Assembly (NCBI GenBank): GCA_964632885.1
Contig: CAZWDB010000004.1
Location: 11,892 to 75,891, forward strand
Source: an uncultured Acidimicrobiales bacterium
Lineage (GTDB): Bacteria > Actinomycetota > Acidimicrobiia > Acidimicrobiales > CAZWDB01
Reading direction: 5' to 3'
DNA length: 64,000 nt
Part shown: piece after piece, positions 11,972-56,887 of the stretch
Layout: each line of letters opens with the position of its first letter
How positions within the stretch are numbered: the stretch's first letter is position 1
Position numbers and translations under genes: made by a program
Notes under the pieces: model-generated
The model's database searches: none
What the model saw: only the letters and a program-made list of their open reading frames with translations
What the model was told of the DNA's origin: nothing

Positions 11972-12019
11972 GCCGCCGCAGCCTATGGACTCGATAAGGA
12001 CGTGTCGATGATTGAATGA

Positions 12020-15000
12020 GTGGCAGTGAGATCTCTGGCGGTGGCAGTGGTGGCGGTACTCGCAGCGGCGATGCTGGCCGCGATCCCGCCTGCCGCGGGC
12101 GCCGCGCCGGTCGGGGCGGATCCGTCGGGTCCGGCGTCCGCCCGTCCGGACCGCTCGGGGGACGCGGAGGTGGTTCCAGGCGAGCTGCTTGTCCAATTCG
12201 AGCCTGGCGTGCGCGGGTCGGAGCGGGCAGAGGCGCGTGATCGGAATGGTCTGGCTCATGTACGAAATCTCCCGCTTGTCGACTTCGAGCTGGTTCGCAC
12301 CGGTGACCGCACCACGCCGCCGGAGGAGCAGGCCGAGCGAGTCCAGCGCGATCGCGCCGTTCGGCTCGCTGAGCCGAACTTTGTGTACCACCCGGCCCAG
12401 ACGCTCCCCGACGACCCCGAGTTCGGCGACCTCTGGGGTCTGCACAACACCGGCCAGATGGGCGGCACGGCCGACGCCGACATCGACGCCCCCGAGGCCT
12501 GGGAAATCGACAGCGACCAGAGCGACCTCGTGGTGGCGGTGACCGACACCGGCGTGTGGGCGGACCACCCGGACCTGGCTGGTGCCATGTGGACCAATCC
12601 GGACGAGACGCCGGACGACGACACCGACAATGACGGCAATGAGCTCGTCGACGACGTGCACGGCTACGACTTCTTCAATGACGACGGGTCCGTCTTCGAC
12701 GAAGCCGACCCCGACGACCACGGCACCCACGTGGCGGGCACCATCGCCGCCGTCGCCGACAACGGCACGCACGTTGCAGGCGTGAGCAACGCGCGGATCA
12801 TGGCGTTGAAGTTCATCGGGCCGACCGGGGGCTCGGCCGACGGCGCCATCGCCGCCATCGCCTACGCCGTCGACAAGGGCGCGGACGTCATCAACGCCAG
12901 CTGGGGCGGGGGCATGTTCAGCGAAGCGCTCCGCGACGCGATCGAGGCTGCGGGGGACGCCGGAATCTTGTTCGTGGCCGCCGCCGGGAACGCCGGCAGC
13001 GACAACGACGCCTCGCCGTCATACCCGGCGAGCTACGACCTGCCCAACATCATCTCGGTGGCCGCCACTACCCGCACGGACGCGTTGGCGTCGTTCTCCA
13101 ACTTCGGCGAGACCTCGGTCGACCTGGGGGCGCCGGGGCAGAGCATCCTCTCCACCGTCCCGCAGTTCGCCAAGGCGGTCCTAACCGGACCCGACACTCC
13201 GGGTGCGACCGCGTATCACTCCGCCTTTCACTCCTTCGGGCTCGAGGGCGTGCTGTCGAGTAGCGACCGCGAGGCGCTCCTCGGTGCCGCCCTCGACTGG
13301 GCCGGCGCGGTGAGCGACACGCCCATCCTCCTCGTCGACGACGACGGGGGCGCGTCGTTCGAGGGGACCTACGAGGCGACCTTGACCGACCTCGGCTACA
13401 CCGACGTCACTACGGAGACGGTTCCGGTGCCGGGGCCGAGCGACGACTGTGGGTCGCATCATGGTCCCGACGCGACCACGATGGCCGGCAACCTGGTCAT
13501 CTGGTTCACCGGCACCGACTTCGGCTGCTGGTCGACGAATCCCTTCGGCGCCCCCACGCCGGAGGGCGACGACACCCTCACCGAGACCGACCAGTCGAAC
13601 CTCACCACGCACCTCAACGACGGCGAGGACCTCCTGCTCTTCGGCCAGGACATCGGCTTCGACCTCACCGACGACGGCACCACGCCGAACACGTTGCTGT
13701 CCGACACACTCAACACCGGCTACATCTCGGACCTGGACCTGAACTTCGATCTGGTCGCCCAGGCGGACACCGCCTATGCCGCCCTGCCGACGATCGAGCT
13801 GTCGGCGAGCGGGTCGAGCTCGCAGCTCTTCTCCGACGCGCTGCTCCCCCTGGATGGCGCCGACGCGGGCCTGCGCGGCTCACCGACTACCTGGTTCAGC
13901 GGGACGTCGATGGCGGCTCCTCACGTGAGCGGCGCGGCCGCCGTCGTGCACGCCACGTACCCCGGTCTCGGCCACCTCGACGTGAAGGCCCGCCTGCTCG
14001 ACCTCGGCGACCCATTGTCCGATCTCGACGGCAAGACGGTGTCGGGCAAGCGGCTGAACCTGGCCTCCGCGCTCGAACCTCCGACGGTGCCGGGCGCGCC
14101 CACGGACGTAAGCGCGACTGCGGGCGATGGGCAGGCGACCGTGTCGTGGACGCCTCCGGAGGACGACGGGCACTCCGACATCACGGAGTACACGATCACG
14201 ACCTACGAGGGATCGAACCCAACAGGGACCACAACCGCGTCGGGGTCCGCGACGTCGAAGACGGTCGCCGGCCTCACGAACGGGACGACGTACACCTTCA
14301 CCGTGTACGCGACAAACGGCGTGGGCGACGGTCCGGAGTCGGACCCCTCGAATGCGGTGACACCAGAAGAGGCCACGGTTCCCGGCGCCCCGACCGACGT
14401 CAGCGCCACTGCGGGCGACGCGTCAGCGACGGTGAGCTGGACGCCGCCTGCAGACGATGGTGGCTCCGCGATCACGGAGTACACGATCACGACCTACGAG
14501 GGATCGAACCCAACAGGGACCACAACCGCGTCGGGGTCCGCGACGTCGAAAACGGTCACCGGGCTCACCAACGGGACGACGTACACCTTCACCGTGTACG
14601 CCACCAACGACGCCGGCGACGGTCCGGAGTCTGACCCTTCGAACGCGGTCACCCCCCTCGGTCCACCGGGCGCGCCCACCGGCGTGAGCGCGTCGGCGGG
14701 TGATGCGTCGGCGACGGTGAGTTGGACGGCGCCGGCGGACGATGGCGGGTCGGCGATCACTAGCTACACGATCACGACCTACGACGGCTCGACTCCGGTG
14801 AAGACGACTAGCGCGGGCGCCTCCGCGACGTCGAAAACGGTCAACGGACTCACCAACGGCACGACCTACACCTTCACGGTCTACGCGACCAACGACGTGG
14901 GCGACGGTCCGGAGTCGAGCGCGACAAGCGGCGTCACGCCGAAGACCGTGCCTGATGCGCCCACAAACGTGAGCGCCGTCGCGGGGGAGGAGTCCGCCAA

Positions 15001-15982
15001 GGTCAGCTGGAAAGCCCCGGCCGACAACGGCGGTTCGACGATCACGAAGTACACCGTCACTGCGTACAAGGGCTCCACTTCCGTGGGCGCCACCACCGCC
15101 TCCGGTTCGGCCCGGTCCAAGACCGTGACCGGCCTCGACGCGGGTGCCACCTACACCTTCACCGTCAAGGCCACCAACGGAGTGGGCACCGGCCCGGCGT
15201 CGAGCCACTCCCAGCCCGTCGACATCCCGTTGCCGCGGTCGGGGTACTGGATGCTCGGCTCGCCCGGCAACGTGCACGCCTTCGGTGACGCCGGCGACTT
15301 CGGCAGCGCCAGCCTGCCTGGACAAGCCGAGGACATCGAGCCGTCGCCGTCGGGCAACGGCTACTGGGTGGTCGACGCCGGCGGGTACGTGGGCACCTTC
15401 GGCGACGCCGCCTACCACGGGGGGCTCAACGGCGCGCTCCAGGCGGGCGAAGCCGTCACCGCCATGTCCGCGACCCCTACCGGCGACGGCTACTGGCTCT
15501 TCACCAACTTCGGCCGGGTCGCAACCTTCGGTGCTGCTCCGCACCTCGGCGACATGACCGGCGTCGCCCTCAACGGCCCCGTGCTCGACTCGGTGGCCAC
15601 ACCGTCCGGCAAGGGCTACTACATGGTCGGCTCGGATGGCGGCATCTTCGCCTTCGGCGACGCCGCTTTCTACGGCTCGATGGGGGGTATCCCGCTCAAC
15701 GCGCCGGTGCAGTCGCTTGTGCCCGACGGCGACGGGACCGGGTACTGGCTGGTCGCCTCTGACGGCGGCATCTTCGCCTTCGAGGCGCCGTTCCACGGCT
15801 CGATGGGCGACACCGTCCTCAATCAGCCCGTGACTGGCATGGTCGCGTCGGGGTCCGCCGGGTATCTGATGGTCGCGTCCGACGGAGGCATCTTCGCCTT
15901 CGGCAGCGCGCCGTTCCACGGCAGCCTCGGCGCCAACCCACCGCCGTACCCGATCGTGTCGGTAGCCGTCCTCCGCGACTGA
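12020..15982 (+). CDS. Secreted subtilisin-like serine protease (S8) with four FN3 modules and a C-terminal six-repeat GYW module
   Basis: Signal peptide MAVRSLAVAVVAVLAAAMLAAIPPAAGAAP. Catalytic contexts are VAVTDTGV (Asp), DDHGTHVAGTIAA (His) and SGTSMAAPHVSGAAAV (Ser). Confidence 0.9.
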   Translation: MAVRSLAVAVVAVLAAAMLAAIPPAAGAAPVGADPSGPASARPDRSGDAEVVPGELLVQFEPGVRGSERAEARDRNGLAHVRNLPLVDFELVRTGDRTTPPEEQAERVQRDRAVRLAEPNFVYHPAQTLPDDPEFGDLWGLHNTGQMGGTADADIDAPEAWEIDSDQSDLVVAVTDTGVWADHPDLAGAMWTNPDETPDDDTDNDGNELVDDVHGYDFFNDDGSVFDEADPDDHGTHVAGTIAAVADNGTHVAGVSNARIMALKFIGPTGGSADGAIAAIAYAVDKGADVINASWGGGMFSEALRDAIEAAGDAGILFVAAAGNAGSDNDASPSYPASYDLPNIISVAATTRTDALASFSNFGETSVDLGAPGQSILSTVPQFAKAVLTGPDTPGATAYHSAFHSFGLEGVLSSSDREALLGAALDWAGAVSDTPILLVDDDGGASFEGTYEATLTDLGYTDVTTETVPVPGPSDDCGSHHGPDATTMAGNLVIWFTGTDFGCWSTNPFGAPTPEGDDTLTETDQSNLTTHLNDGEDLLLFGQDIGFDLTDDGTTPNTLLSDTLNTGYISDLDLNFDLVAQADTAYAALPTIELSASGSSSQLFSDALLPLDGADAGLRGSPTTWFSGTSMAAPHVSGAAAVVHATYPGLGHLDVKARLLDLGDPLSDLDGKTVSGKRLNLASALEPPTVPGAPTDVSATAGDGQATVSWTPPEDDGHSDITEYTITTYEGSNPTGTTTASGSATSKTVAGLTNGTTYTFTVYATNGVGDGPESDPSNAVTPEEATVPGAPTDVSATAGDASATVSWTPPADDGGSAITEYTITTYEGSNPTGTTTASGSATSKTVTGLTNGTTYTFTVYATNDAGDGPESDPSNAVTPLGPPGAPTGVSASAGDASATVSWTAPADDGGSAITSYTITTYDGSTPVKTTSAGASATSKTVNGLTNGTTYTFTVYATNDVGDGPESSATSGVTPKTVPDAPTNVSAVAGEESAKVSWKAPADNGGSTITKYTVTAYKGSTSVGATTASGSARSKTVTGLDAGATYTFTVKATNGVGTGPASSHSQPVDIPLPRSGYWMLGSPGNVHAFGDAGDFGSASLPGQAEDIEPSPSGNGYWVVDAGGYVGTFGDAAYHGGLNGALQAGEAVTAMSATPTGDGYWLFTNFGRVATFGAAPHLGDMTGVALNGPVLDSVATPSGKGYYMVGSDGGIFAFGDAAFYGSMGGIPLNAPVQSLVPDGDGTGYWLVASDGGIFAFEAPFHGSMGDTVLNQPVTGMVASGSAGYLMVASDGGIFAFGSAPFHGSLGANPPPYPIVSVAVLRD
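14087..15234 (+). repeat. Four tandem FN3-module coding repeats (about 97 aa each)
   Basis: Repeated VPGAPTDVSATAGD..ATVSWTPP.DDGGS.ITEYTITTY...GLTNGTTYTFTVYATN. Modules 1 and 2 share an identical 80-nt stretch (14180-14259 and 14471-14550). Confidence 0.85.
15236..15979 (+). repeat. C-terminal six-repeat GYW/SDGG-F-FG module, paralogous to 28430-29176 (minus strand) and 1-450 (minus strand)
   Basis: My hand alignment with the C-terminus of the NHL protein is gap-free and roughly three-quarters identical at the amino-acid level. Confidence 0.8.
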
Positions 15983-16006
15983 CGGCCGCCGCGCCTAACC
16001 CCAGAG

Positions 16007-16055
16007 GTTCTTTGAACGGGCAGCCACCCAGGGGGTGGTTTGGCGTTCAAAGAAC
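16007..16055. terminator. Bidirectional hairpin between convergent genes
   Basis: GTTCTTTGAACG (16007-16018) pairs perfectly with CGTTCAAAGAAC (16044-16055). An inner stem CCACCC/GGGTGG closes a 3-nt loop. The hairpin lies 25 nt after the S8 stop and 9 nt before the stop of the minus-strand receiver gene. Confidence 0.6.
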
Positions 16056-16063
16056 GATGTGGG

Positions 16064-16906
16064 TCAGGCGACGGAGTGGAGGGTGGCGGCGATCTCGGCC
16101 ATGGTCGCCGTCTTGGAGAGGAAGGGTACGCCCCATGCCTCCGCAGGCTCGCGGAACTCGTCCGAGGCGGAAGTCATCACGACCTTGGTGTGCGGACAGG
16201 CCTCGCGGATGACCGGTAGCGCGTCGAGGCCGCTCATGCCGGGCAGCATGCAGTCGAGCAGCACGACATCGGGGCAGTCGTTCCGGCAGTGGTCGACAGC
16301 GTCCTCACCGGTGCCGGCCTCGCCCACGACCGCGAACCGTTCGTCGTGGTCGAGGGCAAACCGCAGCAGGAGGCGGATGTCCTCGGTGTCGTCGACGACG
16401 AGCACCCGGATCGGCTGTCCCGGCTGGCGGCCGGGGGCGCCTCCGTTGCCTTCGGCGTCGAACCTCGGGACGACCTCGGCGAACTTGTCGGCGAGACGGT
16501 CGGCCGTGTTGGCGTGGGCGGTGTCGGCCGCCGCGACGACCTCAGCCATGGCTGCCACCAAGCTGTCGTAGAACGGCTCGGCCTCGACCGGCGCCCGCAT
16601 CAGGCCGAACTGCTCGCCCCGCTCCCGGACGAAGCCGGCGATGTTGAACCACCACAGGGCGAGCCGGCTCGACTCCTCGACGTCGACCTCAGCCGCCCAG
16701 TCGAAGCGGTCCGACTCGGCCGCCTCCGTCCACGCGTCGATGAACCGTCGGAACCCGTCGGTGATGCCGCTGGGGACGTCGACCTCAGCCCGAACCCACT
16801 CGTCGTGGCTGAGCTTCTCAATGTTGTGGGCCGCCGTCCGCAACCAGGCGCGCGCGCTCGCAGCGGGGACCGGTCCGATTCTCACCCACATGACGCCGTT
16901 CAGCAT
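16064..16906 (-). CDS. Response-regulator receiver protein with an unassigned N-terminal domain (no DNA-binding output seen)
   Basis: The C-terminal REC domain reads IRVLVVDDTEDIRLLL...PDVVLLDCMLPGMSGLDAL...KVVMTSAS. The first ~150 aa match nothing I recognise. Confidence 0.8.
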   Translation of the reverse strand: MLNGVMWVRIGPVPAASARAWLRTAAHNIEKLSHDEWVRAEVDVPSGITDGFRRFIDAWTEAAESDRFDWAAEVDVEESSRLALWWFNIAGFVRERGEQFGLMRAPVEAEPFYDSLVAAMAEVVAAADTAHANTADRLADKFAEVVPRFDAEGNGGAPGRQPGQPIRVLVVDDTEDIRLLLRFALDHDERFAVVGEAGTGEDAVDHCRNDCPDVVLLDCMLPGMSGLDALPVIREACPHTKVVMTSASDEFREPAEAWGVPFLSKTATMAEIAATLHSVA

Positions 16907-16992
16907 GCCACCGGTCAGCCCGGATCCGGTCGCGGTATCGAGGAGCGGCGCACGCCAGAAAAGGGAATCTCGGCGGTCCGTCGAACTAACCT

Positions 16993-19656
16993 GTGATGAC
17001 TATGGGTCGCATCCCCCAGCGACCAGTCTCGACCGCTGGCCACCGATGCCCTGTCCGCGGGCCGCTGCGCGCCTTGTCGCGCCACGATGTGGCCCGCGTG
17101 CTCGGTGCGCTCGATCGGTCAAAGCGGACCGCGCTCTTCCGGGCGGCGGGGCTCCGCCTCAGCCCCGGCCGCGCCGCCGACCGGGCTCCAGACCTGGTAC
17201 GGGCCAGGTTGCGGTCGCTCGACGACACCGCGGCCCACAACGTCGCGGTTGCGTGCGTCGACCTCCTTCGCGCCGCTCTCGCCGACTTCACGTGGGACTG
17301 CGACGACGACGACGTCGTTCCCCAGATCGAGAGGCTGCTACCCGCCCTGCTCCGCGAGTGGTCGCCAAGTGTCCTCAGGCTCCTGTTCGCGACAGCAGCC
17401 GACATCGGAGCGATTGGTGGGGCCGAGCACAGTGCCATCACTGCCCTCATCGATTCCGCCGAGCGAGCGGCGCCAGTACCCGCGGAAGGGCCGCTACTCG
17501 CGGCGGACACGTCGGAGCCGAGTGCGCCGGAGTCGAGTGCGCCGGTTGCACCTGCACCCGCGACCAGCGACACCCGGCCGTCGGCGCTCGACGAGCTCGT
17601 GCGGTCCACCGCCCGACGCGGTGTCGACGTCGGGGCGGTCGTCGAAGAGCTACTCGACCTCGAGCCGCTGCGAGAGGGGTCGTGGTTCCTGGCCGGATTC
17701 GCCTCCGGCTGGAACAGCGCCACTCCGGCGCCCCCGACCACGACCACCGCGGCGACCGACGCCATGCTGCGCGGCAGGCTCGCCGCGCTCACCGAGCGGG
17801 GCGCAACGACCGAAGTGGCCGAGGTAGTTCGCCGCGCCCACGGCGCGATCGAGCGCATCCTCCGCACCTCTGAGGGGCAGCCCCTCGCGGCGGGGATCGT
17901 CTACGCCATGCTCGACGCGGATCCCAGCCGTGCGAGTGCACTCTTGCGGCTCCCCTCCGAACCTTTCCCGGGCTACCGCGATGTGCTCGCGCATGCCGCT
18001 GACACCGCTCTCCGCCTCCTCGACAGGGGGCGGGTCGCCCTCGCCGAACAAATCCTGGCCGCGTGTGACGAGACCATCACGTTGTGGTCCGCGACGGCCC
18101 GCGACGAGACAGACGCGACCTCGTTGGAGCGGGCGGCCGCGGCGATCGCCATACGACGGGTATCGTGCCGGCGCCAGCGCAGCGACTTCGTTGGCGCGGC
18201 CGACATGCTCGACCGGGTTCCGCCTGACCGAGTGGCGAGAGACGACGCGGCTCGTGCGGCGGAGGAGCGCGCCCTGATCGCGGTGGAGCTCGGCGACCCC
18301 AGGTCGCTCGCGTTTCCGCGCCGGGCCGAGGACCGTGCGCGACTCTCGGCTCGGCTCGAGCGAGCCGAAGCCAGCATCGAGCACGCGGTGCGGGCCGCCC
18401 CAGACCGGGCCGCGCCCCACCTGCTGGCCGGACTGCTCGCCCTCACCCGGCGCGACGACCGCCGGGCGTCGGTGGAGCTGGGGATGGCCAAGGCCACGTG
18501 GCCATCCGTCACCCCCGAAGCCGACCGGGACACGGAGCCCGCGGGAGCCGAGGCCGGTCACCTCGCTGCTATCGGCTTCCATGCCGCCTTGGCCCGCGCC
18601 CGTCTCCTCGAGCCCGGCACCGACGAGGCGGCCGCCACCGCGATGCTCGACGCCCTGGCAGCCGGCTACCAGCCCGGTCCGGACCACCTGGCCGAGGCCA
18701 TCCACGCGCTCGAAGCCCACGGCGCACCCCAAGCCGCCGACATCGCGGTCGCCGCCTTCGGCACCTCCCCCACCAACACTGCCGCCGTCAACGCGCTCAT
18801 CCGCCACGCCCAGCTAGGTCACCCCAGCGCGGTAGCCGCCGCGGGAGCCGTAACCGACGAGGAGCGCGTCAGCCTGGCCGACCGCTTCGAGATCCTGAGC
18901 GCCGCCGCTCGCGGCGCCCACACCGCGGGCGCACCGGACGAGCTCGACGTGGCCGTCGACGGGGTGGAGCGCGTCCTCACCAGGGTGTGCGACCCGGCGC
19001 TCGAGCTGCGGTGGGCGGTAAGCCTTGGTACCGGGCCGCTCCGTGACGCAGTAGGACCACTGTACGCCGACGCCAGGCGAGTCGATCTGCTACGTCGAGC
19101 AGGCGCGCCGGACGAGGCCGCGGCCATCACCCGCGGGCTGTTCTACCGGGCGGCGGCCGACAGAGAGGCCCCCCTCGACGCCCACGATCTCCTCGAGCTG
19201 ATGGGCGAGCTCGGGGTCGACGACGAGGAGTTGGCGTCGCTGGCTCGTCTGGTCCCCGCCGCCTCGGGAGCGCCCGCCTCGTCGGCAACTGCGGACGAGG
19301 CGTCAGTAAGGCTTCGCCGGGTGGTGAAGGTGCTCTTCGTCGGCGGCAACGAAGTCCAGGCGCGGTACCACGCGGCCGTCGATGACCACCTTGGATCCAC
19401 CTACGGCGGGCAGGTCAGCGTCGAGTGGTTCACCCCGGGCTGGTCGGCGAACTGGGGCCAGGAGGCGGCACGCGTCGAGGCCGCCTACCCAACGAGCGAC
19501 GCCCTCGTCCTGATGTCGTTCGTGCGGACGCTCCTCGGTCGTCGGCTCCGGCGGACCGCAGGCGAAGCCGGGCTCCCGTGGATCGCTTGTACCGGCCACG
19601 GGCGAGCATCGCTCGAGCGAGCGGTGGAGCGGGCCGTCGCGGTAGTGGCCCGGTAG
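16993..19656 (+). CDS. Large alpha-helical hypothetical protein with a DUF2325-like C-terminal domain
   Basis: 887-aa ORF with Ala/Leu/Arg-rich helical content. The C-terminus VKVLFVGGNEVQARYH...SDALVLMSFVRTLLGRRLRR...GLPWIACTGHGRASLERAV resembles DUF2325. Confidence 0.7.
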   Translation: MMTMGRIPQRPVSTAGHRCPVRGPLRALSRHDVARVLGALDRSKRTALFRAAGLRLSPGRAADRAPDLVRARLRSLDDTAAHNVAVACVDLLRAALADFTWDCDDDDVVPQIERLLPALLREWSPSVLRLLFATAADIGAIGGAEHSAITALIDSAERAAPVPAEGPLLAADTSEPSAPESSAPVAPAPATSDTRPSALDELVRSTARRGVDVGAVVEELLDLEPLREGSWFLAGFASGWNSATPAPPTTTTAATDAMLRGRLAALTERGATTEVAEVVRRAHGAIERILRTSEGQPLAAGIVYAMLDADPSRASALLRLPSEPFPGYRDVLAHAADTALRLLDRGRVALAEQILAACDETITLWSATARDETDATSLERAAAAIAIRRVSCRRQRSDFVGAADMLDRVPPDRVARDDAARAAEERALIAVELGDPRSLAFPRRAEDRARLSARLERAEASIEHAVRAAPDRAAPHLLAGLLALTRRDDRRASVELGMAKATWPSVTPEADRDTEPAGAEAGHLAAIGFHAALARARLLEPGTDEAAATAMLDALAAGYQPGPDHLAEAIHALEAHGAPQAADIAVAAFGTSPTNTAAVNALIRHAQLGHPSAVAAAGAVTDEERVSLADRFEILSAAARGAHTAGAPDELDVAVDGVERVLTRVCDPALELRWAVSLGTGPLRDAVGPLYADARRVDLLRRAGAPDEAAAITRGLFYRAAADREAPLDAHDLLELMGELGVDDEELASLARLVPAASGAPASSATADEASVRLRRVVKVLFVGGNEVQARYHAAVDDHLGSTYGGQVSVEWFTPGWSANWGQEAARVEAAYPTSDALVLMSFVRTLLGRRLRRTAGEAGLPWIACTGHGRASLERAVERAVAVVAR

Positions 19657-20252: not shown

Positions 20253-20507
20253 GTGGCCAAGACTGCGGTACTCGACGAATTCGGGAGCCGGGTGCGCGCC
20301 CGGCGGCTTGAGCTTGCGCTGTCCCAGGAGGACCTGGGGGAGCGCTGCGGGCTGCATCGCACCTACATAGGTTCGATCGAGCGGGGCGAACGCAACATCT
20401 CGCTGGCGAACATCGTCCGCGTCGCGGCCGCCCTCGGTGTCGACCCCAGTCAGCTCGTCCGCGGGCTGAGCGAGCAGCCGGAGGGGCGGCGCGCCCGCTC
20501 ACGTTAG
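20253..20507 (+). CDS. XRE-family helix-turn-helix transcriptional regulator
   Basis: RARRLELALSQEDLGERCGLHRTYIGSIERGERNISLANIVRVAAALGV is a classic HTH_3/XRE pattern. Confidence 0.9.
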   Translation: MAKTAVLDEFGSRVRARRLELALSQEDLGERCGLHRTYIGSIERGERNISLANIVRVAAALGVDPSQLVRGLSEQPEGRRARSR

Positions 20508-20748: not shown

Positions 20749-20994
20749 ATGACCAGCACACTTCGCGACCCGATGACTGAGGTTGGCGCCCGCGTCCGGA
20801 CGCGCCGCCTCGAGCTCGAGCTCTCGCAGGAGCAGCTCGCCGACCGGTGCGAGATGCATCGCACCTACGTCGGCTCCCTGGAGCGGGGAGAACGCAACGT
20901 CTCGCTCCGCAATATCCTCCGCCTCGCCGCCGCCTTATCTGTCGACCCGGGCGAGCTGGTCGGTGGGCTCAGCCAGGAGGGAACCCACCCGTGA
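20749..20994 (+). CDS. XRE-family helix-turn-helix transcriptional regulator (paralog of 20253-20507)
   Basis: RTRRLELELSQEQLADRCEMHRTYVGSLERGERNVSLRNILRLAAALSV. Confidence 0.9.
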   Translation: MTSTLRDPMTEVGARVRTRRLELELSQEQLADRCEMHRTYVGSLERGERNVSLRNILRLAAALSVDPGELVGGLSQEGTHP

Positions 20995-21049: not shown

Positions 21050-22108
21050 CCTCCCAGACCGGTGACCTGTTCGCCGAGACGGCGCCGCAGAGTTGGGACG
21101 CCCTGTTCAGGATCCTCGCCGAGGCAGTCGGTGAGGACCTCCGCCATCGTCGTGGTCAACGAGGACCTGGCGATGATCGAGGGCGCTCAACACGCACGGA
21201 CGGGCCTTCTTCCAGCGGGGGACCGACTCGCCGTGATGCCGCTCAGCCCGCCAGAGGCGGACGAAATCACACGTGCCGCGCTCCCGAGGCTTTCGACAGC
21301 TTCTTCGTCACCGGCGGCCTCCCCATGATCTGTGACGAGTGGCCCGCGGCAGGAGCATCTGGCGCAACCTCGAAGACGCGCTCACCACCCGACCTCCGCT
21401 CTGATAGTCCGCACCGAGCGCGCGCTGGCAGCGGAGTTCCCCGAAGACGCGCAGGCGCGGGCCGTGCTCGGCCGGATCGGCGCGGGCGAGACCACGTTCT
21501 CGCACACTGCCCGCGCGCCGGAGGGCTGCAGGCGTCATGGCTCACGCGGTCGCTCGACACGCTCATCACCAAGCACTGTCGTCGTTCGGGGACTGCCGCT
21601 GTCGACCAAGCCGAGCCGCGAGGCTCGCTACCGGGTCGCGGACTCATCTCTGCGCTTCAGGCTCCGATTCGTCGGGCCCAACCTGGGCGAGATCGAGCCC
21701 GGCAGAGACGATCGGGGCGTCGCACGCGTGAAGGCGGACTGGCCGCCGTGGCGGGGCCGCGCCATCGAGCCCGTCATACGCGAAGCGCTTTCCCGCCTCT
21801 CTCCGCTGCCAGGCTTGCCGGCAGCCGCCGCCGTCGGCGGTTACTGGACTCGGACGAACGTCCCGGAGATCGACCTGATCGGCGCCGACCGCGCGCCCGT
21901 CGCCAAGGCGATCACCTATGCAGGCACGATCAAATGGCACGACAACGCCCCGCTGGGTAACCGGTATTTCCGCCAGCTCGCGGCCGACGTCGCGAGCCTG
22001 CCCGGAGCCGATGCGACGCCGCGCCGGCTCGCTGTGAGCCGAAGCGGTGTGTCCGCGCCCGGCGCAGCCGCCAGGCTCGGGCCTGACGACCTCATCGCGG
22101 CGTGGTAA
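21050..22108 (+). pseudogene. Decayed DUF234-type (archaeal-ATPase-like) ATPase lacking the Walker A region
   Basis: Family-like pieces lie in different frames: SAIVVVNEDLAMIEG and LAVMPLSPPEADEI (frame of ORF 21011-21328), GGLQASWLTRSLDTLITKH (ORF 21325-21960), ARYRVADSSLRFRLRFVGP and the DUF234-like tail EIDLIGADRAPVAKAITYAGTIKW (ORF 21332-22108). Confidence 0.6.
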
Positions 22109-22166: not shown

Positions 22167-22892
22167 CTAGACGATGTGTGACCGCTCGATGGTTACATCG
22201 GCCACCAGGGCGGTCCATGTGGCAATGATCTCCTCGTGACTTGCGCCATGCCTGAATAGGTCCTTGTCTAGCGGGTGACCCGCCGTGTCGCGCAGCCGCA
22301 TGCAGTCCGGTGAGATCTCGGAAAGCAAGAGCAGCCGACCTGTGGAATCACGTCCAACGACGACGCAGAAGTCCAGCAACTCACGAGGAGCCAGCCACGC
22401 GCCCACTGTCGAGTTGACTCCCAGGGCGATCGCCTTCAGGTCATCGACAGGCCAGCCTGCGGCGCGAACGTAGTCGTCCGCAATCGGTTGGTCCTCTGGA
22501 TCGATCCGAAAGTCGAACTTCACGACGGGGGGCTCGAATCGATGGCCGGCGGGGAAGAGTCCCGGATACTTGCGAGTGGTTGACCCTTGCGCCGCATTCT
22601 TGACGATCACCTCAAATGGAGGCGCAGTGCACCAGCGGGCGGTATACATCGCGGGTCCCACCCGCTGCCCGAAGGCATGCTCGATGCCAGCGCTCCGCAA
22701 CCGATCGATGGCAAGCTCAAAGAAGTCGAGCCGCAAGACCTCAGTACCTGGCACGTGCTCGTAACGCCCATAAGTAAAGCTACTCAGCGACGGCCGCAGC
22801 TCGACCAGACACAGGCCGTCATTGATCATCCACACCGACTTGCTGTGGCCGACTACCGCCGGTCGCGTCGCGGTCACCGACGCTACATCCAC
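22167..22892 (-). CDS. Divergent SAICAR-synthetase (PurC) family ligase
   Basis: FEVIVKNAAQGSTTRKYPG, PPVVKFDFRIDPEDQPIADDYVRAAGW and LLDFCVVVGRDSTGRLLLLSEISPDCMRLRD...DKDLFR line up with the E. coli PurC blocks VECVVRNRAAGS, PPLFDLFLKNDAMHDP and LVDFKLEFG...DEFSPDGSRLWD...DKDRFR. The GTG start has a TAGGAGAAG RBS. Confidence 0.75.
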   Translation of the reverse strand: MDVASVTATRPAVVGHSKSVWMINDGLCLVELRPSLSSFTYGRYEHVPGTEVLRLDFFELAIDRLRSAGIEHAFGQRVGPAMYTARWCTAPPFEVIVKNAAQGSTTRKYPGLFPAGHRFEPPVVKFDFRIDPEDQPIADDYVRAAGWPVDDLKAIALGVNSTVGAWLAPRELLDFCVVVGRDSTGRLLLLSEISPDCMRLRDTAGHPLDKDLFRHGASHEEIIATWTALVADVTIERSHIV

Positions 22893-22909
22893 CTGTTTAC
22901 TTCTCCTAC

Positions 22910-24784
22910 CTACCTACGGAAGAGGTCGACCGATTCGAGCGGGAAGCCACACCGTTGGTAGCCCTCTCGGACGCGCTCCTTGATCTGCGCTGCCTTAAGG
23001 TATGCCTCGAGATCACCAAGCCAGCCAGCGTGGAAGGTCTGGACTTCTTGGGACGCGGCGTCAACACGAAGCCGTTCACAGACGTCAACCAAGCCGTCGA
23101 AATAGTCGAGGCACATCGCGTCCAGCCTGCGCCGCACCAACTGGAGGGCGTCGGAGTCCTCGACACTAAAGCCGTATCGCGCGGCAGCCTTCTCGAGCGT
23201 CCGCACCGCGTCACGCGCTCCATTGACCTCGCCGAAGAACGAGTTCACCCAGTCGTCGAGACCCTCGATCTGAGAGCGCTTGAATCGCCAGCCATCGCGG
23301 TGCATGGGATCCAGCAGGCCGAGTCTCATCGTGTCCGCAACGACATCGGTACCTGCGTACAGCCGCAGTTTGCGTCGCAGCAGCTTCGGCGGAGCCTCGT
23401 AGCGTCGGATGAACGCCGACGAGGCACGTAGCGAGTCGAACGACGTCAGCGGATGCCATGTGATGTAACCCAACATGATGCGGAGGTCGGCGTCCACTGC
23501 CGGCGAGTAGCCGAGTTCGAGCAGCGTGTCCAGGGCGGCGAAGATCTGGTCAACGGACAAGTCCTTGTCGAAGAAGTCGAGGTCCTCGTCCGACACCGAC
23601 TCAATCCCGAAGTAGATACCAGTGAGCCCTGCCTGCTTGAAATGCGCGAACAACTCCCGGTCGACGGCGTCAGCCCTGCAGAAGAACGTGAACTGGACGG
23701 GATGGTCGAGGGCGATGATCTCGTCGCACAGATCATGCAGGCGACGCCGGCCAGCGCGGCTCTTTATGATGAAGTTGTCGTCTTCGAAGTTGAACGCGGC
23801 TGTGCCGTACGACTCGTACATCTCCGTGATCTCGCCTAGGACACTGGCGTTTGATCTCTGGCGATGATTCCGGCCCTCCTGGAGTGCCTCATACTTCACT
23901 ACGGAGCAGAAGGAACAGCGGTAGAAGCATCCCCGGCTTGCCAGGACGGACGCGGGGATTCTGTCCCCGTAGCGTTGGATGTAGTTCAGATACACGTCTC
24001 TCGCCATGGTCGGAAGCCGATCGAGGTCCGGGATCTTTGGTGGCAGTGGGTTTCTGACGATTCGTCCGCCTGCTCCGAGGTAAGCGACTGCTGGCACCAC
24101 GCGCCAGTCCTGACTGGTGAGGACCCGTTCCACGAGAGCGGGCAAGGTGTCATCCGCTTCGCCGATCAAGTACGTGTCAATCTGCGACGCAACCGCTAGG
24201 TACTCCGCGGACTTGTCGAAGTACGGGCTCGGTCCGTTGGCGATGCCCGTCGAGCACCTCGGATCCGGAGCTACAGGCAACAGGCGCCGCCCCGCTATGC
24301 CGTCGTCGTCGATGTCGCCGGCACCCTTTCCGCGGTCGGTTAGCGCTGCGTCGACGATGGCTCCGACCACAGGTGACTTCGGTGCTCGCGAAGCCGCGAG
24401 AGGCACCGCCACGGGCGGAGCAGCAGTTGCTTCGGCTGGAGCCTCTGACTCTGACATCTGGTCGACGCTGATGCTGGGGCCGTGCCCGCCGACTACCAGG
24501 AATCTGTCGGGACAGCGGGCGCGGACCTTGGTGACAAACTCAAGGACGTCCTCGACATGCTTGTCTCGAAGCATCGACACCCCAACGATCCTCGAAGGCA
24601 CGCTCGCGATCTGATCGACAGTCTCATCGATGGTCCATCCGTCGAGGGATGGCTCAAGGATCTCGACGGTGAAGCCTCGGTCCCGCAAGCTCGCAGTGAG
24701 GATGGCCACACCCATCGGCTCCGCGATCTTCGCGACGCCGAAAACCGAGCTGAGCAACACGATGTCGATAGGATGCTGGTCCAT
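22910..24784 (-). CDS. B12-binding-domain radical SAM enzyme (class B-like)
   Basis: ORF 22910-25327 trimmed to ATG 24784, preceded by GGGAGAAGGGA. The N-terminal Rossmann-like B12-binding region reads IDIVLLSS...IVGVSML...FLVVGGHGPS. The cluster motif is SRGCFYRCSFCSV (CxxxCxxC). Confidence 0.8.
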   Translation of the reverse strand: MDQHPIDIVLLSSVFGVAKIAEPMGVAILTASLRDRGFTVEILEPSLDGWTIDETVDQIASVPSRIVGVSMLRDKHVEDVLEFVTKVRARCPDRFLVVGGHGPSISVDQMSESEAPAEATAAPPVAVPLAASRAPKSPVVGAIVDAALTDRGKGAGDIDDDGIAGRRLLPVAPDPRCSTGIANGPSPYFDKSAEYLAVASQIDTYLIGEADDTLPALVERVLTSQDWRVVPAVAYLGAGGRIVRNPLPPKIPDLDRLPTMARDVYLNYIQRYGDRIPASVLASRGCFYRCSFCSVVKYEALQEGRNHRQRSNASVLGEITEMYESYGTAAFNFEDDNFIIKSRAGRRRLHDLCDEIIALDHPVQFTFFCRADAVDRELFAHFKQAGLTGIYFGIESVSDEDLDFFDKDLSVDQIFAALDTLLELGYSPAVDADLRIMLGYITWHPLTSFDSLRASSAFIRRYEAPPKLLRRKLRLYAGTDVVADTMRLGLLDPMHRDGWRFKRSQIEGLDDWVNSFFGEVNGARDAVRTLEKAAARYGFSVEDSDALQLVRRRLDAMCLDYFDGLVDVCERLRVDAASQEVQTFHAGWLGDLEAYLKAAQIKERVREGYQRCGFPLESVDLFRR

Positions 24785-25026
24785 CTCAGTGTCCCTTCTC
24801 CCGTTGCGCCTCGCCAATGCCCGCAACAGCCTTGTGGGGTGGAGGGCGCGGCGCGAGGTGCCGGGGTAACGCTCGCTCCACGCGGTCGGGATCCGCGTCT
24901 CGCCTGTCCGAGGCGGGAGTCCGCGACGCATCCCGCGCACACAAATCGCCGTTGCCCGCCCGACTGCATGCGCGGCCAGCGTTGCTTGCCCCCGCAGAGC
25001 ACACAGCTCGACGGAGCGGCTGCTGC

Positions 25027-25554
25027 TCAACCGCGAAGCCACGCGCCCAGGGTCGCTGACGTCTCCGCCACAGCATCGGCGAGCGACAGGTCCGTAGTGT
25101 CGAGCAGGAATGATCGTGGCGCGCGCGACGCCAATTCGCGGTAAAGCCGGTGGTAGTGCTCGTGCTTGGCTGGTTCGCCGGGATCCTCGCCGCGTTCGCG
25201 GAGGCGACGCATTGTTACGGGCGTCGACGCCCAGCACACGATGGTGGGCGGCAGCCCGTCGCTCTCCCAGTCGTGCCAAAATACTTCGGGCAGTACGGTG
25301 AACATTGTTGTCCAGTGTCGGTCGCACACGACGCCTTCGGCACCAGCCGATGCGAGAACGCGTTCCACCGCGGTCCGCGCAACGTCACTTGCAAGGGCGA
25401 ACCGCTTGTTCTGCCACAGCGAAGCGATGTAATCGCCCAGCGAGTCCGCAAACGGCCGGACGAAACGCAGGCTGTGCCGTTCTGCAACCGCCGCCCCAAT
25501 CGAACTCTTGCCAGAGCCATCGTGGCCGTCGATGGCGACTATGGTCCCCGCCAC
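25027..25554 (-). CDS. P-loop nucleoside/nucleotide kinase-like protein (dTMP-kinase-like Walker A)
   Basis: MAGTIVAIDGHDGSGKSSIGAAVAE; about 175 aa, the size typical of small NMP kinases. Confidence 0.7.
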   Translation of the reverse strand: MAGTIVAIDGHDGSGKSSIGAAVAERHSLRFVRPFADSLGDYIASLWQNKRFALASDVARTAVERVLASAGAEGVVCDRHWTTMFTVLPEVFWHDWESDGLPPTIVCWASTPVTMRRLRERGEDPGEPAKHEHYHRLYRELASRAPRSFLLDTTDLSLADAVAETSATLGAWLRG

Positions 25555-25555
25555 G

Positions 25556-26284
25556 TCAGAGATGCTCCAGACGCCCGATGCCGGTCACTCGTGGGGGGCA
25601 CAGTTCGACCGGACGAATCTCGACCTCTCCCACGAGCACGTCACGGGGCATCTCGACGACGGCAACGACGACCGCGCCGACTGAGCGCGGCGCCATCTTC
25701 GCCATGCTGGTGTCGGCGTCACGGTTTCTGATGGCGCCAGCGTTGATGCACGTGACTCGAACGCCGAGCGATCGCGCCTCGAGCCTCGCGACGCCAGTGA
25801 GAGCATGGACCGCGGCCTTGGTAGCGCAATAAGCCGCTCCACCTTCGAACGGATGCGCTGCAGCATGACTGCCCATGACGACGAGATCGCCACTGACTTC
25901 TGCTAGGCGTGGCAGCGCGGCCTGCATCAAGGTCAGCGTTGCCGTGAGGTTCGTTTCAACCGAGACTCGCCACGAGCCTTCGCTCATCGCAGTGATCGGG
26001 TCAAGCCGCCGAACAGCGGCGTTGATGACACAGGCCGACAATGGCTCATCGATCCCATCTACCGCCCGCCGCACCGCGTCCACGTCTCGAACATCGCACA
26101 AGATCTCGCCAAGCTCAGATCTTCCTGTGAGTGTTCGGTTAAGCGAGACCACGTCATATCCGGCGGCGAGGAACGCCTCGGCTATACCGCGGCCGGTACC
26201 GCGGTTCGTTCCCGAGATTAGGACTGCGCCGCGCCCGGGCCGGGATGCAGTCGCCGTGGTCACTGAGCTAGATCGCCCTGCCAC
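25556..26284 (-). CDS. Short-chain dehydrogenase/reductase (SDR)
   Basis: AVLISGTNRGTGRGIAEAF (cofactor loop) and AAYCATKAAV (YxxxK). An alternative GTG at 26263 would form a GTGA overlap with the upstream stop. Confidence 0.85.
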   Translation of the reverse strand: MAGRSSSVTTATASRPGRGAVLISGTNRGTGRGIAEAFLAAGYDVVSLNRTLTGRSELGEILCDVRDVDAVRRAVDGIDEPLSACVINAAVRRLDPITAMSEGSWRVSVETNLTATLTLMQAALPRLAEVSGDLVVMGSHAAAHPFEGGAAYCATKAAVHALTGVARLEARSLGVRVTCINAGAIRNRDADTSMAKMAPRSVGAVVVAVVEMPRDVLVGEVEIRPVELCPPRVTGIGRLEHL

Positions 26285-27462
26285 TCTGGCTGCGAAGCAG
26301 ACCGAAACTCCGTCCGTCTCCCCTTGGAAGCTCTCCGCTGAGGGCCGAATAGATGCGGCAAGACGTCGCTGCGTCTATCCCTGCCAGAGTGCCGAGACTT
26401 CTTCGCCAGTAGCGCTACCGCCGCCTTCAACTTACGATCACCAATACCCACCCAGTTTTGAACGAACGCCAAGTTGTAGTAGTGAACATAAGTGTCATCG
26501 TACTTAACCGCCAGCTTCACCAAATCCGGATAGTCGATGTCTCCCTTACTACAGACCATGACAAGGTCTCCCAACAGCTTCCCAGGCGAGTGGTTCGGTC
26601 CAATCGTGTCCCAGGTGGCTAGCTCAGCATAGACTCGCATTGAGAGGAAATAGGTGGTCAGGGCACCGTCGAATACATCACAGTCAGGTGTGATTCGATC
26701 AGGTGGTTTGGTGACCCGTTTCAATAGATCCTTGGTCTCAAGATGTGGGATCCGGACGTTGAAGTGTGGTGTCGCTCTGATGAGCACCTCGACTCGATTG
26801 GCCCTGAGGCCGCGTCCTTGAAAGAAAGGGAAGGCGCGGAGGTGTTGCCGCACAAACCCTTGCGTCCTCGGCTTCATCTTTAGTTCGGCAGGCAAGCCGA
26901 ACGCAGCCAGCTCGTAGCCGAGCTGCTGCTCATTCGCAGCTATCTCAGCGGCAGTTACGCTTCGCAGCTTCCCGCGATACGTGCGGACATGTTGCGAGTA
27001 GCCGAGGCCGTCAAGGACAGCACAAGTCGCTCGGAGGTCCTTTCGTTGGACGAAGAAGTCGATGTCCTTCATTAGGGGCACAACATCGTCTGGGTAGCAT
27101 GTGGACGCGAGGTGTATGCCCTTGAACAGCACGGGCGATACGCGCTCCTCGCGCAGACGCCGCGCGAGAACGTTCCAGGCAGAAACCTGGCACTCGTATG
27201 CGGCCACTGCGGCAAGATGCCAAAGCTGAAAGGGTGAACGTCGAGAGCGGATCCGTGAGTCGTCGAGATAGGCCTTCCGGACGAGGTGCACAATTCGCAG
27301 CTTGAATGCGGCCTCGAAGAGCGCCTCTGTTGTAACGCTCCTTAGAGTTGGCTGAAGGAGCCGTCGGTGCGACTCCCAATCGGCGCCGAACTGACGAAGC
27401 GCGCTGAGAGCGAGGTAGTCGGCAGGCGAGACGCTGACAACTTCGACGTGGTCGGCCACCAC
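26260..27462 (-). CDS. Uncharacterised nucleotidyltransferase (NTP_transf_5/PF14907-like)
   Basis: VLFKGIHLASTCYPDDVVPLMKDIDFFVQRKDLRATCAVLDGLGY matches the family core as I remember it. This is the most A/T-rich gene of the window by eye. Confidence 0.65.
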   Translation of the reverse strand: MVADHVEVVSVSPADYLALSALRQFGADWESHRRLLQPTLRSVTTEALFEAAFKLRIVHLVRKAYLDDSRIRSRRSPFQLWHLAAVAAYECQVSAWNVLARRLREERVSPVLFKGIHLASTCYPDDVVPLMKDIDFFVQRKDLRATCAVLDGLGYSQHVRTYRGKLRSVTAAEIAANEQQLGYELAAFGLPAELKMKPRTQGFVRQHLRAFPFFQGRGLRANRVEVLIRATPHFNVRIPHLETKDLLKRVTKPPDRITPDCDVFDGALTTYFLSMRVYAELATWDTIGPNHSPGKLLGDLVMVCSKGDIDYPDLVKLAVKYDDTYVHYYNLAFVQNWVGIGDRKLKAAVALLAKKSRHSGRDRRSDVLPHLFGPQRRASKGRRTEFRSASQPEWQGDLAQ

Positions 27463-27503: not shown

Positions 27504-28430
27504 TCACCGCGGACTCAGGTTCTTGATCTCCACCTCGACGACCGATGTGGACTCGCTGTCGCCGTTCGAGGTCGTGCGGTTTACCGACTTCACCACGAGG
27601 CCGTGCCGGGGGGAGAAGAATGCAGTCGTCTCGTGCCGCATGCGGTCGGAGGTGCTGAAGGCAAACTCTTCGACACTCTCAAGCTTCCACGTGTCGATGG
27701 CTTCGCCCCCTACCGTGACGCGGTCGACGCCGACGACCTCAAAGTCCCCCTTCCGGTCGATCGTCATCGGCTCGCCACCGAAGGTGGCAGTGCAACTCGC
27801 CGCGTACGACCACTCGGCACCAATGTCGAGCGGTAGTGCGAGTTCCTTGACAGCGGTGTCCCAGTCACAGCGCTGCTTCACTGGGCCTGTTACGTAGGTC
27901 GTCGCGGTGACGTACGCGCCGTCCCGTCGCCAGGTCACCTCGTTCGTCGCGGATCCTCCACCACTGCCGTGCTTGACAAGCTGGCTGTGGTCGCCGTCGG
28001 TTGTCCCGTCGTCGACCACGACCGTTCGCCGCTCACCGCTGTCCGACTCCGCGCCGTCCTGGCGGGACCAGGAATAGACATACGTCCCAGGTAGCGGCGG
28101 GCTGGTCGTGGCGAGCTGGCGCTGTGCCGCCGGTTCGCCTCGCGCTTTGTCCCCGACGTCGGTTGTTTGCCCTGTGGTTGTCTCGTCGTTGCTGTGTTCA
28201 GCGGGTGCCTCGTTGCCGTCCGCGGGCCCAGACTCGCGGCCCGACTCCACGGGCGCCGACCCGTCACCACCGGCCGTAGGCGTCGGCGCGGTGGGGGTCA
28301 CCGAGGCACCTCCATCACGAGCGCCGGTTGCGACCGCGGCGGCGACGCCGCTGACGAGCAGCGCGACGGTCACCACGGCGACCAAAAGGCGCAGTCGTGG
28401 TGTATCGGAGGGCATGGCTGATCGAGTCAT
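27504..28430 (-). CDS. N-terminally membrane-anchored extracytoplasmic hypothetical protein
   Basis: MTRSAMPSDTPRLRLLVAVVTVALLVSGVAAAVA anchor, then a low-complexity linker. The start forms an ATGA overlap with the upstream NHL gene stop. Confidence 0.7.
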   Translation of the reverse strand: MTRSAMPSDTPRLRLLVAVVTVALLVSGVAAAVATGARDGGASVTPTAPTPTAGGDGSAPVESGRESGPADGNEAPAEHSNDETTTGQTTDVGDKARGEPAAQRQLATTSPPLPGTYVYSWSRQDGAESDSGERRTVVVDDGTTDGDHSQLVKHGSGGGSATNEVTWRRDGAYVTATTYVTGPVKQRCDWDTAVKELALPLDIGAEWSYAASCTATFGGEPMTIDRKGDFEVVGVDRVTVGGEAIDTWKLESVEEFAFSTSDRMRHETTAFFSPRHGLVVKSVNRTTSNGDSESTSVVEVEIKNLSPR

Positions 28431-52057: not shown

Positions 52058-52185
52058 CCTGGTACGTGTCACTTGATTGACCCCTTCGGAAGACGAGGGC
52101 GGCCGTCCGCTGCGGTGCGTAGGCCGTCCACTGCTGGGTTCGACGGGCCTCGGCCATCTCCTCGTGTGCTTCGAGGCCATCGCGA

Positions 52186-52231
52186 ACTATGCGCCCTTCG
52201 TCCCGAAAAAAAGAGACCCGTTTGGACGACA
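52186..52231 (-). promoter_or_regulatory. Box + T-tract promoter module, copy 3
   Basis: On the minus strand: TGTCGTCCAAACGGGTCTC (52231-52213), T7, 14 nt, then CATAGT (52191-52186). Confidence 0.45.
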
Positions 52232-56876: not shown

Positions 56877-56887
56877 ACTGCGTGTTG

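Follow-up and report, generated by a model that had tools for sequence, protein, structure and literature searches.

We have analysed a block of five open reading frames (ORFs), all on the minus strand and spanning positions 22167-27462 of a 64-kb stretch of DNA from an uncultured Acidimicrobiales bacterium (contig CAZWDB010000004.1; the whole stretch is referred to here as the window). We conclude, with a probability of roughly 0.55, that this block is an acquired cassette for a purine nucleoside antibiotic of the pentostatin/coformycin class, a variant without earlier description, which makes a modified coformycin-type inhibitor. The known part of the cassette is the scaffold-forming pair, a short homologue of the phosphoribosylaminoimidazolesuccinocarboxamide (SAICAR) synthetase PurC and a short-chain dehydrogenase/reductase (SDR). 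The new part is its conserved extension, formed by a thymidylate kinase (TMPK)-like kinase and a B12-binding radical S-adenosylmethionine enzyme (rSAM), together with the distribution of this extension in uncultured bacteria of several phyla and its product. Pentostatin is a clinical drug, and the cassette probably makes a new relative of this drug class.

The PurC-like protein scored 51 bits against the purC equivalog model TIGR00081, for which the cut-off is 189.9, and had hundreds of relatives of ~240 aa at 52-68% identity, in a family with a mean column identity of 60%. It was 54-60% identical to PenC/CofB/AdeA-type homologues in nucleoside-type loci; the identities given here for both members of the pair refer to homologues in linked loci and not to S. 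antibioticus PenC or S. kaniharaensis CofB themselves. Among these homologues were P0062, a member of the aristeromycin/coformycin-type locus L091 of M. haikouensis (55%), whose gene content agrees with the published mac cluster, a protein from Actinoplanes teichomyceticus (59%), and an Aureisphaera (Bacteroidota) protein encoded in a cassette of the order HisG - PurC-like - SDR - HAD (56%). The protein was also 54% identical to a 90%-identity cluster containing proteins of Nonomuraea spiralis and Streptosporangium; ade-type clusters have been reported in Nonomuraea (including Nonomuraea spiralis) and Streptosporangium (PMC13055916). Neighbours of the A. teichomyceticus and M. haikouensis genes included inositol-phosphate-synthase-like, S-adenosylhomocysteine-hydrolase, purine nucleoside phosphorylase (PNP), adenosine-deaminase, IMP dehydrogenase (IMPDH) and HAD genes, and in M. 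haikouensis an SDR gene directly follows the PurC-like gene. The window SDR was 41.7% identical over its full length to this M. haikouensis SDR and 42-50% identical to the PurC-like-adjacent SDRs of loci L004, L006-L011, L015, L097 and L109, and a Gly motif (GTNRGTGRG) and a YCATK motif could be read in its sequence. Homology and synteny hence assign the PurC-like protein to the PenC/CofB type, as opposed to a true PurC, and the SDR to the PenB/CofA type, as its partner. The former is predicted to form the diazepine ring and the latter to reduce the 8-keto diazepine nucleotide.

Work by Ren et al. that appeared in PNAS in 2020 reportedly showed that the SAICAR-synthetase homologue turns a branch-point intermediate of the histidine pathway into 8-ketocoformycin 5′-monophosphate, and that the SDR is said to reduce this 8-keto product with NADPH before dephosphorylation. 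These biochemical roles are established for the PenC/PenB family, and we infer them for the window copy. Pentostatin itself is made by PenA (HisG-like), PenB (SDR) and PenC (SAICAR-synthetase homologue), and the mac cluster of M. haikouensis, which makes aristeromycin and coformycin, was found with PenB/PenC probes (PMC12648386); probes of this type located the mac, cof, foc and prf clusters. The CofA/CofB, FocJ/FocI1 and PrfQ/PrfP proteins are homologues of the PenB/PenC pair (bioRxiv 10.1101/728154), while adeA, annotated as 'SAICAR synthetase', is the core gene of four cluster families, those of pentostatin, coformycin, adechlorin and pyrazomycin (PMC13055916). By these comparisons, the biosynthesis of pentostatin, coformycin and adechlorin has a known signature pair, namely a divergent PurC next to an SDR. 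A preliminary description of the window, made from the sequence alone, had proposed that the block tailors a purine intermediate or a nucleotide-derived metabolite, which was the right direction, but had overlooked this signature. Its statement that no known pathway combines the five activities holds for the kinase, the B12-rSAM and the nucleotidyltransferase-fold protein (NTP_transf_5) encoded by the fifth gene, and fails for the PurC-like/SDR pair; accordingly, the match to a characterised cluster that it named as a ground for abandoning its view exists for just two of the five genes.

The second half of the cassette consists of the rSAM and the kinase. Pfam agreed with the five domain calls of the preliminary description, weakly in the case of the kinase, and the CxxxCxxC motif, the B12-binding N-terminal domain and the thymidylate-kinase-type P-loop that it had pointed out were all borne out. 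The motif corresponds to C286/C290/C293, which are invariant in an rSAM family of ~47 members, nearly all of them metagenomic. The enzyme scored below every NCBIfam cut-off, and its best sequence match in the PDB was OxsB (E 4.6e-6), followed by AprD4 and TsrM. In an AlphaFold model built with 22 homologues (pLDDT 84), residues 113-187 formed a disordered insert and residues 509-612 a helical bundle at the C-terminus. When this model was searched with Foldseek, OxsB came first (E 5e-22, TM-score 0.63-0.66), five orders of magnitude ahead of MgmA (7.5e-17), with TsrM, CysS, AprD4 and TokK as the other runners-up. The three features of an OxsB-type enzyme, that is, a B12 Rossmann domain, a CxxxCxxC core and a C-terminal helical bundle, were all found by Pfam and in the model. 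In OxsB, the reaction is a contraction of the deoxyribose ring, with dAMP, dADP and dATP as substrates (PMC9204698); the window rSAM is predicted to carry out a radical alkylation or rearrangement of a sugar or a base. In the kinase, the P-loop DGHDGSGKS and a DRHW motif were invariant among homologues, and the AlphaFold2 model (pLDDT 87) gave its best TM-scores, 0.71-0.79, with thymidylate kinases. The NCBIfam equivalog models of dTMP and CMP kinases gave 16-24 bits against cut-offs of 83-135. The predicted fold is that of a TMPK, yet by these scores the protein is neither a genuine dTMP kinase nor a genuine CMP kinase.

The preliminary description had proposed a census of genomic neighbourhoods for the combination of a PurC-like protein and a B12-rSAM, and the synteny does recur across phyla, because of which the gene arrangement cannot be put down to chance. 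Related rSAMs (36-54% identical) were present in 7 of 185,579 species-representative genomes, all seven being metagenome-assembled genomes (MAGs): two from Actinomycetota and one each from Dehalococcoidia, Acidimicrobiales, Acetobacteraceae, another alphaproteobacterium and a deltaproteobacterium. A metagenome collection added about a dozen further loci. Arrangements were derived by tblastn and Pfam over all loci (Table 1), and a four-gene core of kinase, rSAM, PenC-like and PenB-like genes was found in ~15 of them, from Actinomycetota, Dehalococcoidia, Alphaproteobacteria and Deltaproteobacteria, all MAGs or metagenomes. The four genes adjoin, often with overlapping stops and starts, in L007/8, L009/10, L011, L015, L097, L109 and the P0144 contig. 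The tightest linkage was that between kinase and rSAM, the kinase lying directly upstream of the rSAM in the window, L012, L015, L017, L094 and L097-L100; the linkage of these two genes to the PenC-like/SDR pair came second. The window kinase was 33-52% identical to the rSAM-adjacent kinases of L007, L009, L011, L012, L015-L017, L094, L097-L100 and L109. On these grounds of homology and synteny, the kinase/rSAM add-on is conserved and its context is that of nucleotide metabolism.

The wider context always comprised genes of purine/histidine nucleotide metabolism plus phosphatases or exporters. Adenylosuccinate synthetase (AdSS) homologues occurred in L012, L015, L017, L094, L097 and L100, and dedicated HisG, HisA, HisE or HisI in L097 and L006, with HisG alone in L110 and, weakly, in L011, and with His homologues also in L004. 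Phosphatases of the His_Phos_1 or HAD families were found in L097, L098, L109 and the P0144 contig. The four-gene unit lies beside different bigger clusters, of nucleoside-type genes in L109 and of non-ribosomal peptide synthetase (NRPS)/polyketide synthase (PKS) genes in L009, and in the latter a DDE transposase adjoins the cassette. In L006/L012, many of the upstream histidine-pathway genes look fragmented, possibly through assembly frameshifts.

Table 1. Features of the window and gene arrangements of related loci. Positions are those of the window, or locus coordinates in the rows of related loci; hyphens in arrangements separate genes.
Feature or locus	Positions	Strand	Evidence or content
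NTP_transf_5 (PF14907) nucleotidyltransferase-fold protein, 400 aa	26260-27462	minus	Pfam E 1.8e-12
PenB/CofA-type SDR, 242 aa (GTG 26284) or 235 aa (GTG 26263)	25556-26284	minus	adh_short E 2.2e-28
Thymidylate-kinase-like P-loop nucleotide kinase, 175 aa	25027-25554	minus	weak AAA_18/cytidylate/thymidylate kinase matches
Spacer between kinase stop and rSAM start, 242 nt, GC 71.5%	24785-25026	minus	rSAM start set by homologues
B12-binding rSAM enzyme, 624 aa	22910-24784	minus	B12-binding E 2.7e-11, Radical_SAM E 4.1e-12
PenC/CofB/AdeA-type SAICAR-synthetase homologue (PurC-like), 241 aa	22167-22892	minus	SAICAR_synt (PF01259) E 2.9e-20
Paralogous XRE-type helix-turn-helix genes	20253-20507; 20749-20994	plus	190-nt direct repeat, 73% identity
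DUF234-only ORF	21332-22108		
ORF next to the cassette, 308 aa	27504-28430		signal/transmembrane segment, Pro/Thr-rich linker, no Pfam domain
AbiEi-antitoxin-like gene	56028-56909	minus	
HerA/DUF87-like gene	59415-60275	minus	
L007/8/13, L009/10, L011			rSAM - PenC-like - SDR - kinase
L109	790-12888		rSAM - PenC-like - SDR - kinase, at the end of a bigger nucleoside-type cluster with PNP, PurH-like AICARFT_IMPCHas, inositol-phosphatase-like, pyridoxal-phosphate (PLP) enzyme, aminotransferase, methyltransferase, dNK/TMPK-like kinase and HAD genes
L015 (and truncated L094, L100)			AdSS - kinase - rSAM - PenC-like - SDR
L097			His_Phos_1 - kinase - rSAM - PenC-like - SDR - AdSS - HisG - HisA - HisE
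L006/L012 (Actinomycetota MAG)	10001-17004		larger cluster with HisG, HisA, HisI fragments, second B12-rSAM (463 aa), acyl carrier protein, NTP_transf_5, AdSS, 324-aa protein without Pfam domain
P0144 contig			rSAM - kinase; HAD, SDR, PenC-like on the opposite strand
L017, L098, L099	5115-11620; 6314-12435; 1956-7074		second kinase, more PurC-like ligase, formamidase-like protein (Pfam-checked in L098 only), divergent SDR, then kinase - rSAM
L110			HisG - rSAM only
L101			rSAM only, 5′ end cut
L014, L095, L096			more distant rSAMs (36-39% identical), no partners

As for the layout of the window copy, the tight spacing of the five genes proposed in the preliminary description was confirmed at three of the four junctions. 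At 26263-26260, a GTGA contains the TGA stop of the NTP_transf_5 gene and a GTG in frame with the SDR ORF, whose longest version starts at 26284; the kinase and SDR genes are separated by 1 nt (25555); and a GGAG lies within the 17 nt (22893-22909) ahead of the PurC-like gene. The kinase and rSAM genes, in contrast, are not tightly spaced, because the rSAM start supported by homologues, ATG 24784, leaves the 242-nt spacer: each of the ~47 full-length homologues (600-650 aa) begins to align at residue 7. For a near-identical contig, a public gene call has given the rSAM an earlier start, for a protein of 710 aa that overlaps the kinase; the homologue lengths do not support it. The spacer showed no terminator or promoter consensus and no signal of RNA folding (z = 0.03), and a permissive Rfam search of 20-29 kb returned nothing relevant, no cobalamin riboswitch and no match in the spacer. 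A CxxC-x17-CxxC peptide is encoded in one frame of the spacer, without conservation in the related loci.

The base composition of the block also set it apart, as the preliminary description had noticed when it called it A/T-richer and acquired-looking. GC content was 58-65% inside and 69-74% outside, and the GC content of third codon positions (GC3) was 0.65-0.76, compared to 0.84-0.93 in flanking genes. The drop is sharp at ~22150, the recovery comes at ~27900, and the minimum (52-56%, at 26.35-26.95 kb) falls within the NTP_transf_5 gene, the lowest-GC part of the block. These values argue for a horizontally acquired low-GC island. Moreover, the cassette lies 8-10 GC points under its flanks in the window and yet matches the GC of its own host (41-72%) elsewhere, which speaks for recent acquisition in this genome. 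A tRNA scan and a search for flanking direct repeats found nothing that marks the borders of the island. The flanking genes are unrelated to the cassette: they encode an NHL/fn3 secreted protein, an M23 peptidase, an S8 subtilase, the two XRE regulators and the DUF234 remnant.

How such a cassette might work can be outlined from its parts. The PenC/CofB-type enzyme would cyclise a histidine-pathway intermediate, derived from ATP and 5-phosphoribosyl 1-pyrophosphate (PRPP), to an 8-keto-1,3-diazepine nucleoside 5′-monophosphate, the SDR would reduce the 8-keto group with NADPH, and a phosphatase would free a transition-state-analogue inhibitor of adenosine deaminase. The TMPK-like kinase and the OxsB-like B12-rSAM would be a conserved add-on acting on a purine nucleotide of the same pathway. 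In this scheme the kinase would set the phosphorylation state (NMP to NDP), either to supply the rSAM substrate or to return a modified AMP analogue to the ATP level for HisG; that OxsB acts on mono-, di- and triphosphates would explain an adjacent nucleotide kinase. The rSAM would alkylate or rearrange the sugar or the base by radical chemistry, and would do so ahead of the histidine-type steps or, alternatively, with the diazepine nucleotide as its substrate, and the product would be a modified coformycin-type inhibitor. Modification before the histidine-type steps would account for the AdSS and the dedicated HisG, HisA and HisE in the fuller clusters. Since the window lacks genes for HisG, HisA, HisE and a phosphatase, its cassette would rely on housekeeping enzymes for these steps. 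The more specific proposal, that the OxsB-like enzyme remodels or alkylates a purine nucleotide before or after formation of the 1,3-diazepine, giving a new structural class of deaminase inhibitors and possibly a matching sugar-modified adenosine analogue as well, is one that we put forward tentatively, at somewhat less than even odds.

Several observations weigh against a modified coformycin-type product. The 64-kb window contains no homologue of HisG, HisA, HisE, AdSS, a HAD or other phosphatase, or an exporter, so that, while fold, identity and the adjacent SDR agree with the PenC family, a clustered HisG of the PenA type is missing. The rSAM is only ~16% identical to OxsB; by Pfam and the model, it lacks N-terminal domain I of OxsB and begins directly with the B12 domain, and Pfam found no gene for an HD-domain OxsA partner in the island. 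Regarding the type of reaction, most B12-rSAM enzymes are methylases. In L017, L098 and L099 the partners of kinase and rSAM are a divergent SDR and another ligase that is closer to PurC, and L110 and L101 have the rSAM without the PenC/PenB pair; the rSAM/kinase unit is therefore not strictly tied to that pair. The SAICAR_synt protein of the variant loci (Pfam 2.9e-38) is only ~28% identical to the window PurC-like protein, which suggests that in these loci the same rSAM is the centre of a separate, though related, pathway. Finally, identity between rSAM-linked and classical PenC-like proteins was 53%, compared to 56% within the rSAM-linked group, and no group-specific residues separated the two; the weight of this result is neutral or mildly contrary, as ribo, 2′-deoxy and 2′-chloro substrates are already within the range of the classical members.

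The closest alternative keeps the same enzymes but splits them between two products, in a 'protector-protege' arrangement: the PenC/PenB pair would make ordinary coformycin or pentostatin, and the kinase and rSAM a separate sugar-modified adenosine analogue that is thereby shielded from deamination. Every characterised PenB/PenC pair clusters with the pathway of an adenosine analogue (Ara-A, formycin, aristeromycin or 2′-amino-2′-deoxyadenosine), OxsB and one partner enzyme suffice to make oxetanocin A from dAMP, dADP or dATP, and an rSAM and a nucleoside kinase make 4′-thiothymidine (thmA-C; PMC12691670). The lack of group-specific residues in the rSAM-linked PenC-like proteins points in the same direction, as does the occurrence of kinase and rSAM with other partners or alone (L017, L098, L099, L110). 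However, the four genes travel as a single translationally coupled unit, and, in the way expected of a protector module, this unit as a whole is joined to other clusters of nucleoside type (L109); its position beside nucleoside-type or NRPS clusters (L109, L009), like that of a PenABC 'protector', favours one pathway. In addition, the HisG, HisA, HisE and AdSS genes of L097 suggest that a non-standard ATP analogue feeds the diazepine route, comparable to the ade cluster, for which a specialised HisA has been proposed to act on a chlorinated intermediate (PMC13055916). Taken together, we consider two separate products unlikely.

The other alternatives depart further from the nucleoside antibiotic reading. 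The preliminary description had suggested a nucleotide-modifying anti-phage module by analogy with radical-SAM viperins. In such a module, whether for defence or counter-defence, the rSAM and kinase would make a chain-terminating or toxic nucleotide, as prokaryotic viperins with adjacent kinases do, or the product would be a deaminase inhibitor acting inside the cell. The island is an acquired one close to XRE regulators and a DUF234 remnant, the other low-GC island of the window carries AbiEi- and HerA-like genes, and PADLOC gave weak matches to both parts of one candidate system, PDC-M51A for the rSAM (21.2 bits) and PDC-M51B for the kinase (17.9 bits). These scores are at the level of generic superfamilies, the aligned parts being confined to the P-loop and the core of the rSAM; none of the five proteins matched any other PADLOC defence model, those for viperins and pVip included, and a profile of the rSAM found no relative in 2.9 million viral contigs. 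Elsewhere the neighbours are purine, histidine, phosphatase, NRPS and ABC-export genes and not defence genes, and half of the four-gene core comes from a natural-product family whose chemistry is known, all of which makes a role in defence improbable. Even less is to be said for a spare SAICAR synthetase of primary purine metabolism, joined by chance to unrelated neighbours. Public databases name the whole PenC/CofB-like family phosphoribosylaminoimidazolesuccinocarboxamide synthase, and the best PDB matches of the PurC-like protein are PurC structures; but this label looks like a systematic misannotation, because the window protein scores far under the purC cut-off, and the family is patchy and located in secondary-metabolite loci. 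The four-gene synteny is moreover kept across four phyla and the block is a compositional island, so that we give such a chance assembly very little credit.

Tailoring of a ribosomally synthesized and post-translationally modified peptide (RiPP), for instance a lasso peptide, was the third suggestion of the preliminary description, and hardly deserves belief; the peptide would be modified by the NTP_transf_5 protein, kinase and B12-rSAM. The best NCBIfam match of the rSAM is indeed a RiPP enzyme, ApyD, a model of a RiPP C-methyltransferase also matches, and in L007 a gene for a nucleotidyltransferase-like protein with a PqqD domain is found at a distance of ~4 kb from the cassette. The ApyD score (93 bits) is nevertheless far below its cut-off of 750, in the island and its flanks Pfam found neither a precursor nor any cyclase, protease or RRE gene, and the peptide encoded in the spacer is not conserved across loci. 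The conserved partners of the rSAM are nucleotide enzymes, and NTP_transf_5 is missing from most related loci and lies outside the conserved core.

The NTP_transf_5 protein retains, as read from its sequence, an intact catalytic-type DxD motif (MKDIDFF). An exhaustive HMMER search of 1.84 billion representatives returned no relative under E 1e-30, the best match being 27% identical, and NTP_transf_5 genes were present in just two other rSAM loci (L006/L012 and L098), where they are very divergent. Comparison of its sequence with the PDB was uninformative, as it was for the kinase. We regard it as a lineage-specific, near-orphan accessory that may serve in tailoring by nucleotidyl transfer or in self-resistance.

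Around the cassette, the ORF at 27504-28430 was considered as a sixth gene and rejected, as its product has the look of a secreted protein of the host and the ORF seems coupled to the NHL/fn3 gene, with a 4-nt overlap at the stop of this 1192-aa gene. The ORF ends 41 nt ahead of the cassette; the lowered GC extends into its 3′ half, so that transcription of this upstream operon may continue into the cassette. On the other side, the DUF234-only ORF that follows the XRE pair is without the N-terminal ATPase usually found and is possibly the remnant of a gene. A second low-GC stretch (~63%) at 52000-62000, several ORFs of which have no Pfam domain, contains the AbiEi- and HerA-like genes of Table 1; this stretch, perhaps a defence island or a mobile one, may have nothing to do with the cassette.

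To our knowledge, no more than a handful of diazepine nucleosides have been found in nature, each in a cultured actinomycete or fungus, and OxsB is the sole ring-contracting B12-rSAM enzyme with a solved structure. Full-text literature searches returned no report of a cobalamin radical-SAM enzyme connected with pentostatin or coformycin genes; a 2025 review and a 2026 phylogenomic study mention neither radical SAM nor B12, and the latter does not mention a kinase either. If our reading is true, compounds of this class are made by uncultured bacteria of at least four phyla, and the host range of diazepine chemistry extends to Chloroflexota and Proteobacteria. The addition of a kinase and a cobalamin rSAM to the ring-forming pair predicts new diazepine analogues, and the enzyme would belong to only the second nucleotide-acting clade of B12 radical-SAM enzymes. 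This clade is related to OxsB and has a strongly implied nucleotide substrate, in a subfamily in which substrate prediction is the usual bottleneck, and the four genes are a tractable target for heterologous expression.

Compared with known systems, the cassette is closest to the pen, cof, mac and ade clusters, with which it shares a short SAICAR-synthetase homologue beside a dedicated SDR (54-60% and, to the mac-type locus, ~42% identity, respectively), the recruitment, in related loci, of HisG, HisA and HisE paralogues and of HAD/His_Phos phosphatases, and the location of the module beside other nucleoside pathways. It differs from them in that a B12-rSAM and a TMPK-like kinase are joined to the module, in the AdSS homologue often present in related loci, in the absence of HisG and phosphatase from the window copy, and in that all carriers of the rSAM module are uncultured and include Chloroflexota and Proteobacteria besides Actinomycetota. 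By sequence and fold, the nearest solved relative of the rSAM is OxsB, which together with OxsA makes oxetanocin A in Bacillus megaterium. Both enzymes have the B12 Rossmann domain, the rSAM core and the C-terminal helical bundle, whereas the window enzyme, besides its low identity, has a 75-residue disordered insert and has neither the N-terminal domain nor the OxsA partner. The 4′-thiothymidine genes thmA-C of Photorhabdus and AbmM/AbmG of albomycin resemble the cassette in logic only, as very small clusters for sugar-modified nucleosides that combine an rSAM with a nucleoside or nucleotide kinase; their rSAMs do not depend on B12, and the kinase there is a nucleoside kinase of the AbmG type. 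Prokaryotic viperins that have kinases next to them and the PDC-M51 system likewise place an rSAM beside a small P-loop kinase, and both PDC-M51 components are weakly matched (18-21 bits); viperins, however, lack the B12 domain and are about half the size, and, unlike these systems, the related loci have no defence-island context and the rSAM has no viral copies.

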